This document shows, piece after piece, positions 4,960 to 10,390 of a stretch of DNA of 64,000 nucleotides. This DNA is from Promethearchaeota archaeon. GTDB lineage: Archaea; Asgardarchaeota; Lokiarchaeia; Sigyniarchaeales; SOKP01. The stretch lies in NCBI GenBank assembly GCA_019894975.1, contig JAGXNO010000001.1, positions 165,677 through 229,676 on the forward strand, written 5' to 3'. The stretch's first letter is position 1; the number at the start of each line of letters is the position of its first letter. The position numbers and the translations under genes are program-made. The notes beneath the pieces were generated by a model. That model saw only the letters and a program-made list of their open reading frames with translations. It was not told where the DNA came from and did no database searches.

Positions 4960-5424
4960 TTAGCTCTCGGGTCTTAAATCTAATTCTAACACTTCATAGA
5001 CTTTTTTAAATTTCATCTTTTCATACAAATTTAAGGCTTCCATAGCTTTTTCTTTTATATTCACTTTTACTTTTTCCACCTTGATTTTTTTTAGATGTTC
5101 CATAGCTTTTTCTAATAAAAGATGTCCAGTACCCCTGCTTCGATACTTTTCTTTCAAAAAAAATTGCCTAATATATCCCTCAGATGATCCTAAGGGGTCA
5201 ATGCGAAGTTCAGCTACTATCATTCCTACTACGGAATTATTATCTTCATCAATAGCTATAAGTATCCCATGACGTTGAAGAGGATCAAAAAGCCGACGTC
5301 TAATACCCCAATCAAATCGTTTAGGATCAAATTTTTGCCCTAACCCTTCTACTAACTGTTTAGTCAAATCCTGCAAATCCTCAATTTGCTCCGGATTGGC
5401 TATTTCTACGCGAATTGAACTCAT
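4960..5424 (-). CDS. GNAT family N-acetyltransferase
   Basis: Acetyl-CoA motif A 'KYRSRGTGHLLL' and 'ALNLYEKMKF'; 23 nt upstream of rfcS, likely co-transcribed. Confidence 0.85.
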   Translation of the reverse strand: MSSIRVEIANPEQIEDLQDLTKQLVEGLGQKFDPKRFDWGIRRRLFDPLQRHGILIAIDEDNNSVVGMIVAELRIDPLGSSEGYIRQFFLKEKYRSRGTGHLLLEKAMEHLKKIKVEKVKVNIKEKAMEALNLYEKMKFKKVYEVLELDLRPES

Positions 5425-5597
5425 ATTTCATCATCGTATGCTTTGTTATTACCATAATTATTGCAATTTTAAAATTTAAATTTTCTTAACTCAAATTTAA
5501 TAAAACTACAAATGAGGTGTTTATTAATACAGCTTTTAATTAAAACAATAGCATTTTAAAAAAATTAAAATAAATTTTGCGTTAGTGAAGAATACTT

Positions 5598-5885
5598 TTA
5601 AAAATGACGAGCAGACGTCCCATCCCAGACTTTTACAGTTTCATTTACCCATCCACATTTAGGACATTTGTCTGTAAGTTCCCAGCTCTCAAGAGCGGGG
5701 TGTATACGACAATATAAACCTCCACAGTTAGAACACACTAGAAATTTAGCTCCACATCCCGCACACATTTTCAACTGACCTTGCTCCACAAACGGAAAAG
5801 CTCTCCGCATCCATTCGTCATGAGCAAGAGAAAATTGGTCTTTTCCACAAACAATACAATGAACTCCATCTTCTTGAAGAGCCAT
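5598..5885 (-). CDS. small multi-CxxC zinc-binding protein
   Basis: 95 aa with CIVC, CAGC, CSNC and CPKC plus CRIH. Confidence 0.75.
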   Translation of the reverse strand: MALQEDGVHCIVCGKDQFSLAHDEWMRRAFPFVEQGQLKMCAGCGAKFLVCSNCGGLYCRIHPALESWELTDKCPKCGWVNETVKVWDGTSARHF

Positions 5886-6534
5886 ATTATCACACTATAT
5901 TTAATAATAATTGAATAAAAGTCTATATCTTTAGAATTTTATACGTTTTTTTTATAATAATAATAAAATACTGAATTAAAAATTAAACGATTTCGAAAAG
6001 GGAATTATAACGAACTTCTATAAATTCTCATTTTTTTTTAAGATATTATGTAAAATCAAGAAATGGGAAAAAAGTGGGAATATTGTGAAATGTATCAATA
6101 ACATGTTTTCCCACAATATTTTGATGTGAACTAAAATTATATTTTCATTACCCGTCAAACCGAAGATTTAAATTAATACTTTCAGTGATATAAAACATAG
6201 AATAAGTTAATCAAAAATTAAATTTTAAATTTACATTCAAATCCATTACACTCGAATTACGATATTATCTTTGAAGGGAGAGTTAAAAACGGCGTACTTA
6301 AGAGAAGTATATCTGTAGAAATCCGCGACAAAATCAATAACTTAGAAGATACTGGCTTATCTAAGGAATAATTAAGAATTATTAAATATATTAAGAAGAT
6401 CATCGAAATTATCAAACTAATATTTAAAAAAATGAATTTTATAATCTTTGGCCAAATTGGTTTAATTGTTGTTCTTTTACGCGCATTTTTTTATCAATTC
6501 TGTTTTTTAATATCCATTTCCATATTGAAAAACG

Positions 6535-6575
6535 TAGAATCGCCTCCTAGAAGTTATACTTCTAGGAGAATTCTA
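6535..6575. repeat. inverted repeat/hairpin in a long intergenic region
   Basis: CTCCTAGAAGT (6544-6554) + TAT + ACTTCTAGGAG (6558-6568) is a perfect 11-bp stem; outer arms TAGAAT/ATTCTA. Confidence 0.75.
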
Positions 6576-6870
6576 TTTTTTCCAGAGTATTCTTTATTCA
6601 ATATCTCGACAAGTGGGAATAATGTGGGTGCGAGTCACAATTTTTTAATATCTTGAAATGTAGAAAAAATCAATTTTCTTGCGATATCTTGATATGTAGG
6701 AAAAATTGGTCTTCATAGACTCTTAAAAAGAAAACTTAAATAAAGATTTTCTTGTTATTAATTACCCTAAATATAGATATATAAAAGAAGTAAAGTTAAG
6801 TAATATTTTACTTCAAAATAAAACCAAAATTTATAAAAACAAATAATTAAGCAAACCAAGTGTAAAAAAT

Positions 6871-8649
6871 ATGGAACTTGAAAAGAAAAATTTAGCTATT
6901 ATAATATTGTCAGTTGTACTTGTCGCTTCTGGAGTAGGTAATGTTATTCTCGCGATTACCAGTGGATTAATAGTTGAACCTGATCGTCGAAACACTATAA
7001 TTGTAGGCGCCGGATCAAATCTAGCAGCAATAGATCCTCTCGATACATGGGATGTTCCTTCAAACGTTGCCGAACATCAAGTTGCTGAAGGATTGGTTGA
7101 CTATGACTATACAGATCATCCTAATTATAGGATAGTACCAAAACTCGCTGAATCTTGGATATGGAATGGTCCTCAAGAAATTTCATTTAAAATAAGAGAA
7201 AATGTATATTTCCATGACGGCAATCTCCTTACTGCTAATGATGTAAAATGGAATTTTGACAGACTTATGTACTTCATCAATTGGACTGGAGATCTTGTTG
7301 CAAATGATACCTCATGGGAAGCGTTTCCATCAGCATTATACTTCTTCTCTGATGGTAGTCCAATTTTAAACAGAACTGAAGTATCAAGTGATTACAACTT
7401 TACTGTTTATTTAAACAAACCTTTTGGTGCATTTTTAGACTTGATGACATTTTCTGCGACTTATATTTTATCTCCAGCATCTACACCAAGATATAGATAT
7501 CTTGATATGACTTCTGAGAAAATAGTTGGTACTGGACCCTTTCAATTTATCCGCTTTAAATATGATGTTGATGTTAGATTTGAAAGATGGGATAGATACT
7601 GGGCAACTGGACCATGGGCAGAACTCCTAGTATTTAAAATACTTGAAGATGATACAGCAAGGATGACTGCTGGGTTGGCAGAGCAATTTGATTATATAGG
7701 AGGAGTACCAAAATCCTTTATTCCGAGTTATATCTCTGATCCAGATTTACATGTACAGGATGTTGGTGAAGATCTCTGTTATTTCTATTTAGAAATATAT
7801 TGTGGTCCTCCCGAAGGGGAATCTCCTATTGTTGGTGGACAAGTTAATCAAAAAAATCCAGCAGAATTCAGAAAGGCTCTTGCTTTAGTGATAAACTACA
7901 CCTATATTCTTGAAGAAATACAAAATGGATATGCGTTTACCGGCTGTCCAGCTGTCCCACGAGCAATGCCGGGATACAATAGTTCACTTGAAGGTAAAAT
8001 GGCAAGTGACAACCCATTTGGTGGAACATATGAGAGCAGTATCAAAAAGGCTAGAGAAATAATGATGTCCTTATATCCTACTAACACTTCAGGCCTTGAT
8101 CCAAATTATCCTGGTACTACTGAATCTGGTTGGTCGAGTTTATCAATTGATACATTAGAAGTTAATCAACATTTTGGAGATCTCACAAATCTAAGATTAA
8201 ATCAATTAATGACGGCTAACTTTGATCTAATTGGAATAGATATTGATATAACTACAAGAACCTGGGGAGAATATTTAGATACTGGTGAGCATACTCCTTG
8301 GGAAATGGATCTTGGATATATAGGTTGGTGTCCTGATTATCTTGATGCTTTTAATATGCTTGATCCACTATTCAATAATCTTTCGGGATCATGCTTTTCT
8401 CGAATCAGTGATCCTGATTTAATAACGATGTTAGAAACAGCATCAGCATTGACTAACTCCACGGAAAGACAAGAAGTTTATATGGATATTCAATCTTATA
8501 TCTATGATATCACCAGAACTACTCCCGCATCTTATACTCACATACCTGGTTGGGTGTTCTTAATACAACAAGTTCACAAAACCGATTTGAAGGGTGTTGG
8601 ATATAATGTTATGGCTATGCTAGATTGCTGGAATTGGTATAAGGAATAG
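6871..8649 (+). CDS. ABC transporter substrate-binding protein, peptide/nickel family (family 5)
   Basis: N-terminal TM anchor; PKLAESW, FKIRENVYFHDG, VGTGPF, FRKALALVIN, GWCPDYLD. Confidence 0.92.
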   Translation: MELEKKNLAIIILSVVLVASGVGNVILAITSGLIVEPDRRNTIIVGAGSNLAAIDPLDTWDVPSNVAEHQVAEGLVDYDYTDHPNYRIVPKLAESWIWNGPQEISFKIRENVYFHDGNLLTANDVKWNFDRLMYFINWTGDLVANDTSWEAFPSALYFFSDGSPILNRTEVSSDYNFTVYLNKPFGAFLDLMTFSATYILSPASTPRYRYLDMTSEKIVGTGPFQFIRFKYDVDVRFERWDRYWATGPWAELLVFKILEDDTARMTAGLAEQFDYIGGVPKSFIPSYISDPDLHVQDVGEDLCYFYLEIYCGPPEGESPIVGGQVNQKNPAEFRKALALVINYTYILEEIQNGYAFTGCPAVPRAMPGYNSSLEGKMASDNPFGGTYESSIKKAREIMMSLYPTNTSGLDPNYPGTTESGWSSLSIDTLEVNQHFGDLTNLRLNQLMTANFDLIGIDIDITTRTWGEYLDTGEHTPWEMDLGYIGWCPDYLDAFNMLDPLFNNLSGSCFSRISDPDLITMLETASALTNSTERQEVYMDIQSYIYDITRTTPASYTHIPGWVFLIQQVHKTDLKGVGYNVMAMLDCWNWYKE

Positions 8650-8742
8650 AAATCCTGAGTCTAATTAAAATAAAAATCTAAAATAAAAATTTTCTTTTTT
8701 TTTTATCTTTTAACTCTTAAATTGAAAAGAGTTTTATTTCAA

Positions 8743-9673
8743 CTAGGATTTAGTATATTCTTTTATCGCTCTTACAATATCTGCTTTTCGATAAGAAGAG
8801 AGGAATTTTATATTATTTTTCACGACAATATTGTTTTAATTGTTTTACAGTCCATGTACTATACTCTACTTGACTGTTCTCTTTTTTTGGTTTAACAACA
8901 GGTAAGTCTTCTTCTAGAATTTCTATAGCTTCAATTTCTTTATGTTTAAGATCTAAATAAATTCGGAGTTTCTGCCCATCAAGTTCAATTATTTGCTTTG
9001 GAAGATTAGAAATCAATTCCCATTCCTTTACTTCCACACTTTTATCAAAAATTTCTGCTTTCTTTGTAATTTGACCATAGAGAACATTATTTCCTATAAG
9101 TATACTCGTGCGTTTGAAATTTTCGGGGATTCTTTCTTTTAAAACTCGGTCAAGTATATTTCTTGAGCTTTGATTCTTTTTTAAATCCCGAAAAGACGGA
9201 GAAATTTCAGGTTTTTTACTCAAATCTCTAACTTTTTCTATTTTATTTTCTTCGTACTTATCTTTCCACTCAAAATTAGACGAATTATTTTTTATTTCTA
9301 AATCGTTTGGGATGTTGGAATTAACCACAAAAGGCATTTCTTTAAATCCAAAAGCACTGAGAAAATCCTCAGGTTCATCTCCTTGGTCTACTGAAATAAT
9401 TTTGCATCGATGAAAATTAGATGAAACTATCAATCTCCTTTGCAAATCTGAGGCTACTCGAGACGCTATGAATTTTTTTCTGACTGAAGATGATATCCCT
9501 TTCCAGATATAAATCCTTCTAAGCGCTTCTTTAATTATTACCACTACTTGTAGGGGATTTAATATTATATTTCCATTGTTCTGTCTGAATGCCTCTTCTG
9601 TAATATTTATTTTATCCTCCTCACCATTATCTTTAACCTCAAATAGCATAAAATCTGTATAAGTCTCTAACAT
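8743..9673 (-). CDS. gelsolin-domain protein with C-terminal SAP/HeH-like domain (frameshift near 8816-8820; track ORF ends at 8813)
   Basis: Gelsolin-type motifs RRIYIWKGISSSVRKKFIA and SVDQGDEPEDFLSAF. The ORF ends ...YSTWTVKQLKQYCREK; removing one A from the A5 run continues it as NNIKFLSSYRKADIVRAIKEYTKS to a TAG at 8743-8745. Confidence 0.75.
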
Positions 9674-9794: not shown

Positions 9795-10118
9795 TTACAT
9801 TTCCAATTTTTTTGCTTTTGCATTCCCAGATACTTCGGGATTTACTTTTTCTAATTCACCAATTAATTGGAATGTCTTATCATCATTTAATGCTTCACTA
9901 AATTTAATGAGAAATTCTTTACTCCCAACAAACAGACCTTTTCTCTTTAATGGCTTGCCATCCTCTTTAAGAGGGTTTATCTCTAAGAAAAGAAGTGCTG
10001 GTCTTGTTTTTGTAGCGGGAACTTTGACAACGTTCACACCATCAACGGGAGTTTCCATTTTTTCCCAATCAGCAGCATTTTTTAAATGAGCTTTTAATTG
10101 TTCTTCTATGCTTGACAT
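9795..10118 (-). CDS. hypothetical protein, possibly PC4-like nucleic-acid binding
   Basis: Likely start MSSIEEQ at 10118. 'LEINPLKEDGKPLKRKGLFV' loosely resembles the PC4/Sub1 'P.KKGI.L' strand. Confidence 0.6.
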   Translation of the reverse strand: MSSIEEQLKAHLKNAADWEKMETPVDGVNVVKVPATKTRPALLFLEINPLKEDGKPLKRKGLFVGSKEFLIKFSEALNDDKTFQLIGELEKVNPEVSGNAKAKKLEM

Positions 10119-10390
10119 AATATGTAACATGTAACACCTATGTCTTATAAATTTTAGTAAAAATAATATGAGTCACTTTTTTGAAATAAACTGTGATATC
10201 AAAACAGTCTAAAATTCTTGAAATTTTTGTCTATTAAAAGTAATATTCTATGTTATACCTTGAATTATATAATAAAGAAAAATTATTTATTCTGTCGGAT
10301 TTCTTGGGGTCAACTTCCACTAAATCTTTAAATATATCACTCTCGTATATATCTGTATTAATTAAAACTAAAAAATTTAAGGTGATTTTT

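Follow-up and report, generated by a model that had tools for sequence, protein, structure and literature searches.

The window, a 64,000-nt stretch of a Promethearchaeota archaeon contig (JAGXNO010000001.1, positions 165,677 to 229,676; assembly GCA_019894975.1), carries on its minus strand an open reading frame of 286 codons plus a TAA stop (8813..9673, ATG at 9673), the product of which was 89-90% identical to the intact 310-aa homologues P0001 and P0002. The frame, which encodes a gelsolin-type protein, ends in ...YSTWTVKQLKQYCREK, followed by the TAA (8815-8813), and this stop falls in the middle of a HeH/SAP motif. The first half of the motif (YSTWTVKQLKQYCRE; 8819..8866, minus strand) lies in the main frame and corresponds to positions 2-16 of the 37 in the SAP profile. 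The second half (NNIKFLSSYRKADIVRAIKEYTKS; 8746..8817, minus strand), identified by translation and by tiling on homologues, comprises 24 codons in the +1 frame. Read from 8820, that frame gives KNNIKFLSSYRKADIVRAIKEYTKS and ends in a TAG stop (8743..8745, minus strand), one codon before the end of close homologues in the alignment.

An initial sequence-only reading had proposed that one extra A in the run of five A's at 8816..8820 (minus strand) creates the premature stop, and that the shifted frame completes the motif. Dropping one A of the run yielded the 24 further codons that make up the missing half of the motif. Since this off-frame piece was 92% identical to P0001, it is not a chance frame. 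On the HeH motifs of the intact proteins P0001 and P0003 the two pieces tiled without gap or overlap, the break falling immediately after CRE. In agreement with the proposed insertion, when aligned with three orthologous loci (79-89% protein identity) the window DNA was longer by exactly one base here (GAAAAAT compared to G-AAAAT, A-ATAAT and G-AGAAT). The TAA at 8813..8815 (minus strand) is a product of the shift. The relatives read GAAAAT, TAATAAT and GAGAAT; neither the A-run nor the stop was conserved.

A search of 5.8 billion proteins returned 350 homologues, nearly all of them about 310 aa long (the equivalent of 286 + 24), with identities of 87-90% for the best. Their source names covered Promethearchaeota, Loki-, Thor-, Hermod-, Odin-, Heimdall- and Hodarchaeota. 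Whether such homologues carry the full tail in frame had been raised by the sequence-only reading, and they did so in 119 of the best 120 of the 350 (108 with one HeH motif, 11 with two and one with none), running on in frame through CR(D/E)NNIKFLSSYRKADI(I/V)RAIKE. As written, the window gene would encode a protein with the gelsolin and X domains described below, without the second helix of the tail, and the 286-aa ORF should be flagged in annotation as frameshifted and not as a new short form. Reading through the TAA in frame 0 under an alternative genetic code was also considered; it gave sequence unlike the family and was rejected.

A second single-base difference was observed at the end of the gene (8743-8748), where the window reads TCCTAG and three close relatives read TCTGGTTGA, which brings the stop of the tail frame forward by one codon; because the difference lies outside a homopolymer, it looks like natural variation. 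An inverted repeat that could be read from the sequence 3' of the gene (AACTCTT, 8 nt, AAGAGTT, then A/T runs; 8712..8733, minus strand) is a possible transcript end. It aligned in all four loci, and one of these (L003) had base changes in both arms, none of them demonstrably compensatory.

The upstream neighbour (9795-10130, minus strand) encodes a 111-aa protein that was 87-95% identical across the syntenic relatives, compared to 50-89% for the gelsolin gene, and that matched no Pfam family. The other neighbours (an RHH gene, a gene for a giant MIT-repeat protein, a GNAT gene and an RFC operon) were syntenic only in the closest lineages and did not occur near the remaining orthologues in the genus. 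The gene neighbourhood yields no functional inference for the gelsolin gene. In the interval that separates the gelsolin gene from its next syntenic neighbour (5886-8742), the window contains a 592-aa gene (6871-8649, plus strand) whose product resembles ABC substrate-binding proteins by sequence. This gene was absent from the same place in three related loci (L003, L024 and L031) and was represented only by its last ~43 codons in two others (L001 and L002), which points to an insertion or deletion in this interval.

Cause of the additional base

The sequence-only reading had included, among the explanations for the break, a slippage switch between isoforms. For such a switch between tailless and tailed products, the ribosome would have to move by +1 at AAA-UAA in a programmed way, or the polymerase would have to slip while transcribing the five A's. 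Shifting by +1 at AAA UAA would yield a product whose length matches the family exactly, and in Euplotes this sequence is known to direct +1 shifts. However, none of the eight same-genus orthologues of the 310-aa type found in a search of 40 related genomes contained an internal stop, the three metagenomic loci of the DNA alignment were likewise in a single frame, and the slippery run and the stop both lacked conservation. Furthermore, polymerases do not slip efficiently on as few as five A's, and recoding of this kind was not found described for Asgard archaea in the literature searched. The unbroken state of all eight orthologues and the lack of conservation of the A-run excluded a conserved recoding site. 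Judged from these comparisons, the shift is neither programmed nor conserved. A switch specific to this lineage would have only the match in length in its favour, and we consider the isoform switch very improbable.

The two other explanations were a sequencing or consensus error, in which case the organism has an intact 309-aa gene and there is no biology at the site, and a real, very recent mutation, in which case the lineage would make GelX without a folded HeH motif or would be losing the gene. These were regarded as about equally likely, each at slightly less than an even chance. The break must be either very young or not real, because the tail was undamaged and there was no excess of non-synonymous change. 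On the window lineage, 7 codon changes were non-synonymous and 8 synonymous; the corresponding ratios in two intact relatives were 12:10 and 19:21. This lack of excess, together with an off-frame tail that was intact to within its final codon and the position of the indel within a homopolymer, is what would be expected of an error, and under a real mutation the absence of further decay in both tail and body means that the event must have been very young.

The quality of the assembly bears on both explanations. The genome is a 175-contig MAG with 8.55% contamination, and another of its contigs (C122) contains a second one-base frame break by a short homopolymer stretch (CCCTTTTTC); both points favour a consensus error. 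In contrast, all 13 of the 13 syntenic neighbours of the gelsolin gene were full length, including a 1637-aa Lys/Glu-rich gene that is rich in A-runs, and 138 of the 149 genes compared with a congener were full length and in a single frame. When the other 11 were checked by hand, one proved to be the C122 break and the remaining ten had no second piece in another frame. A run of five A's is also short for a systematic homopolymer error. An assembly that is locally clean by these counts argues for a real mutation, as does the dispensability of the 310-aa subfamily: of 25 genomes of the genus that were searched, only 9 contained it, and a longer paralogue was found in all 25. The source genome likewise has an intact 373-aa paralogue (contig C120, L007:718-1839, minus strand). 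Two exact-pattern scans of metagenome contigs for same-species sequence, in which either A4 or A5 was allowed, returned nothing relevant; their sole match (L023) was unrelated and due to chance.

The second frame-broken gene lies on the minus strand of contig C122, at about 5249-6369. It has a one-base deletion near CCCTTTTTC, judged against the congener orthologue L024:2634-3791, and by its look the product would be an acyltransferase-like membrane protein.

Domain architecture and family membership

The domain anatomy was read from the AlphaFold model of P0001, a 90%-identical homologue (mean pLDDT 73). This model contained a gelsolin-type domain (residues 1-112), a disordered segment (114-162), a helix followed by six strands (161-255) and two C-terminal helices (276-285 and 296-308) connected by an extended segment. 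The order of a gelsolin-like domain, a charged linker, a middle domain and the tail, as given in the sequence-only reading, was reproduced in the P0001 model; the description of the middle domain as beta-rich had to be corrected, since a long helix precedes the six strands.

The gelsolin/cofilin-fold domain of the window protein (residues 1-112; 9338..9673, minus strand) was assigned by profile, Foldseek and VIA comparisons. A profile built from 60 family members matched Thorarchaeota ProGel (7c2f_B, E 5.4e-6) and 2DGel3 (E 3.1e-5). Consistent with the profile, the domain in the P0001 model matched 7c2f in Foldseek (E 2.2e-5, TM 0.83 by target) and in VIA (Z 13.9, rmsd 1.7, 88 of 88 residues aligned), followed by dozens of gelsolin, villin and adseverin domains with Z values of 9-12; fragmin domains were also among the matches. 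With the Pfam Gelsolin model (PF00626) the window protein scored 14.9 bits, below the cut-off of 21, and family member P0094 scored 21.7 bits, above it; DUF7904 was also sub-threshold on the window protein. Because of the low Pfam score, assignment to the gelsolins is based on the family profile together with the fold. The N-terminus as modelled has a gelsolin fold, in which a central sheet packs on a long helix, and this confirmed the gelsolin-like domain of the sequence-only reading; the absence of such a fold, which would have counted against that reading, was not observed.

The linker that follows (residues about 113-160; 9194..9337, minus strand) is charged and poorly conserved, with alignment columns that lacked a consensus, and is predicted to be disordered (pLDDT <50 at 114-162). 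The core of the region known as domain X (residues about 161-257; 8903..9193, minus strand) formed a long helix and then six antiparallel strands in a stand-alone model, with a pLDDT of 85.9. Comparison with solved folds gave no significant relative: the best VIA result was to hot-dog thioesterases (Z 4.7, rmsd 4.9) and no Foldseek match fell below E 0.3; a sequence profile of the domain had no match in the PDB, and a search of the ESM Atlas returned only its own family. One family member had a weak Pfam ENCP4 match (E 0.023). When 1.84 billion representatives were searched exhaustively with a profile, only 78 proteins were recovered, and almost all of these shared one architecture. By these sequence searches, domain X is an Asgard-specific alpha/beta domain confined to the GelX family.

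The sequence-only reading had pointed to the Asgard gelsolins with an extra X region, and this placement was upheld: the published family has a single gelsolin domain and a C-terminal X region and is Asgard-only (PMC7444086). By its sequence, the locus is a member of this known family, GelX/1DGelX, belonging to an HeH-tailed subfamily and represented here by a broken copy. Identity with the assayed Thor 1DGelX was inferred from the architecture, the taxon and the number of paralogues. The Thor protein bound rabbit actin with a Kd of 7.7 uM and showed calcium-independent severing and nucleation in vitro, and monomer binding was likewise demonstrated in vitro (PMC7444086). Akil et al. predicted a coiled coil for X and suggested that an actin side-binding element resides in it (PMC7444086). 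In human cells GFP-1DGelX was located outside the nucleus (PMC7444086), a location that says nothing either way on DNA binding. In the source genome there are two 1DGelX paralogues, as in strain MKD1, which has two 1DGelX genes (PMC9433394). Work on L. ossiferum renamed the family GelX, grouped B35_GelX with Thor_GelX, and described X as a disordered domain of unknown function (bioRxiv 10.1101/2025.11.30.690169). In the published form of that work, co-immunoprecipitation with Lokiactin enriched five gelsolin homologues (PMC13716822).

The window gene thus shares with the published 1DGelX/GelX proteins one N-terminal gelsolin domain, a linker, a non-gelsolin C-terminal region and an Asgard-only distribution. 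It differs from them in two respects. In the published proteins the C-terminal region was described as unknown, coiled-coil or disordered, whereas here it consists of an alpha/beta domain and an HeH/SAP module; and the window copy is frame-broken inside the HeH motif. A full-text literature search for gelsolin with SAP, HeH or LEM in archaea returned no paper describing the tail, and fusion of a SAP/HeH/Rho_N module to a gelsolin domain was not described in the literature searched.

The C-terminal HeH/SAP module

With the window tail read through and an X placed at the break, the SAP model scored 25.6 bits, above its Pfam cut-off of 23.9, and the Rho_N model 25.9 bits, above its cut-off of 24.9. 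When 60 members were scanned with Pfam, SAP matched 50 of them, HeH 45, Ish1 34 and Rho_N 33; several members passed curated cut-offs, with P0094 passing all of SAP, HeH, Ish1 and Rho_N, and the precomputed Pfam hits in the protein database also list SAP/HeH-type domains on homologues. The last 44 residues of the P0001 model had as neighbours the Rho N-domain (1a62; Z 6.3, rmsd 1.9, 44 residues aligned), the CDNF C-domain (9i5y_B, Z 6.3), the Hcc-1 SAP domain (2do1, Z 6.1) and the emerin LEM domain (7ndy, Z 5.7), with an overall range of Z 5.7-6.3 and rmsd 1.8-2.6; on its own, a Z of about 6 for a modelled 40-residue two-helix motif is modest. The SAP/HeH/Rho-N pattern that the sequence-only reading had recognised in the tail was therefore borne out by both the Pfam cut-offs and the neighbours 1a62, 2do1 and 7ndy, and the lack of any such match, which would have spoken against it, was not found. 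The SAP, HeH, LEM-like and Rho_N modules (PF02037, PF12949, PF10281 and PF07498) have the same two-helix fold and signature, and occur elsewhere in eukaryotic chromatin and inner-nuclear-membrane proteins and in bacterial Rho.

The C-terminus of the wider domain-X family was variable. Among 40 representatives, 11 had only the HeH motif, 4 had the motif together with a C-terminal peptide, 21 had only the peptide and 4 had neither. The peptide, [KR][KR]xL[PK]x[IV]P, stands at the extreme C-terminus and is followed by acidic residues (representatives P0121-P0189). Its pattern is compatible with that of class I SH3 ligands and is also similar to the LKKV part of WH2 motifs; no description of it was found in the literature consulted. 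The 373-aa paralogue in the source genome belongs to the group with both elements (RRQLPKIPSMDD is an example of the peptide). Since 21 of the 40 representatives end in the peptide without an HeH motif, the HeH tail is a module that can be exchanged and does not belong to the core mechanism.

The whole source genome was then searched with a profile of the tail only. This profile matched both halves of the window motif, the paralogue and three further proteins. When the Pfam HeH and SAP models were run directly on the genome they detected the paralogue only; the other proteins, ScpA and topoisomerase VI-B among them, came to light only with the tail profile of the family. The first match was to the N-terminus of a 318-aa protein (E 2e-11). 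The next gene downstream encodes ScpB (E 1e-21) and the C-terminal part of the protein itself was weakly ScpA-like; from these two observations it was identified as ScpA, the kleisin of the SMC complex. The second match (E 2e-8) was to a 1124-aa protein with a topoisomerase VI-B transducer domain (E 2e-29), and the third (E 4e-3) was to a 318-aa protein with a Rho_N domain. The modules had in common the pattern W(T/A)V..L(K/R)..(C/A)....I..P...(R/K)K..I(I/V).

Proposed role of the tail

Overall, we consider it likely that the locus is an HeH-tailed GelX gene, that its frameshift is not programmed and that the tail of intact members is a targeting module. It is most likely through their gelsolin domain that intact members act on Lokiactin filaments, and the HeH tail would probably serve to direct them to a target. 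That this target is DNA or chromatin is put forward tentatively, at somewhat below an even chance. It is supported, by association only, by the fact that ScpA, topoisomerase VI-B and the gelsolin protein have the module in common. The sequence-only reading had suggested an actin-to-nucleic-acid tether, and from sequence such a link in the family appears plausible.

Alternatively, the HeH tail may not bind nucleic acid at all and may instead bind the side of the actin filament, in the manner of a villin headpiece, or another protein. A side-binding element in the C-terminal extension was proposed to explain severing together with bundling (PMC7444086). SAP-like folds can bind actin-fold ATPases, as in the complex of the CDNF C-domain with the BiP ATPase domain (9i5y_B, Z 6.3), and many family members have a peptide motif resembling a protein ligand in place of the tail. 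However, the nearest relatives of the tail within the genome are on ScpA and topoisomerase VI-B, which work on DNA and are not known for actin, and all of the matched Pfam families are DNA-, RNA- or chromatin-associated. On balance a protein-binding tail was judged rather unlikely, and less probable than one directed to DNA or chromatin. A co-fold of the Lokiactin of the genome (L032) with the X-plus-HeH region scored 0.00, a result that was counted neither for nor against binding.

Several known proteins resemble the predicted arrangement in part. Like villin and supervillin, the HeH-tailed protein has a gelsolin-fold part, a flexible linker and a small C-terminal helical module with a second binding activity, which in the present case would be a predicted one. 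Villin itself has six gelsolin repeats and a three-helix F-actin-binding headpiece, in contrast to the one repeat and the two-helix HeH motif found here, which belongs to another superfamily. MRTF/myocardin proteins have RPEL actin-binding motifs and a SAP domain, by which the state of actin is coupled to a DNA-associated function, so that they too have an actin-binding part and a SAP-type module in one polypeptide. RPEL motifs are not of the gelsolin fold, however, and these proteins are nuclear transcription cofactors; homology beyond the SAP-type motif is not implied. The closest working analogy for an actin-DNA connection is the ParR-ParM system, in which DNA is tethered to the end of an actin-like filament. 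ParR, which binds the centromere site, is a filament-end binder that also holds DNA; it has no sequence or fold relationship to GelX, for which the holding of DNA is speculative.

By this analogy, HeH-tailed GelX might couple the ends of Lokiactin filaments to the chromosome through the type of HeH motif that is found in ScpA and topoisomerase VI-B. We consider this specific proposal improbable as it stands. If it were true, it would imply actin-based positioning or segregation of DNA in Asgard archaea, and a prokaryotic forerunner of the eukaryotic actin-chromatin and HeH/LEM links. Asgard archaea have few actin regulators, GelX proteins being one group of them, and in vitro assays on actin exist for the Thor member. 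The window itself, as a broken copy, adds little to this; it is the domain map of the family, an Asgard-only fold joined to an exchangeable module (HeH, a KRxLPKIP-type peptide, or both), that provides a testable hypothesis on the cellular site of action.

Additional observations were made on genes carrying the module. In the ORF of ScpA, the HeH motif (contig C98:91367-91480; L050:1501-1614) precedes the earliest ATG, GTG or TTG; the frame is open over 340 aa, and translation from the first common start gives the 318-aa product. The ScpA gene may use an unusual start codon, or gene callers may miss the module. In the topoisomerase VI-B protein the HeH motif follows the transducer domain (contig C98:111222-111320; L054). 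On contig C131 (10963-11058; L055), a 318-aa protein was found to have an N-terminal HeH motif of the Rho_N type (E 1.6e-9) together with a CxC...CxH arrangement that resembles a SWIM zinc finger.
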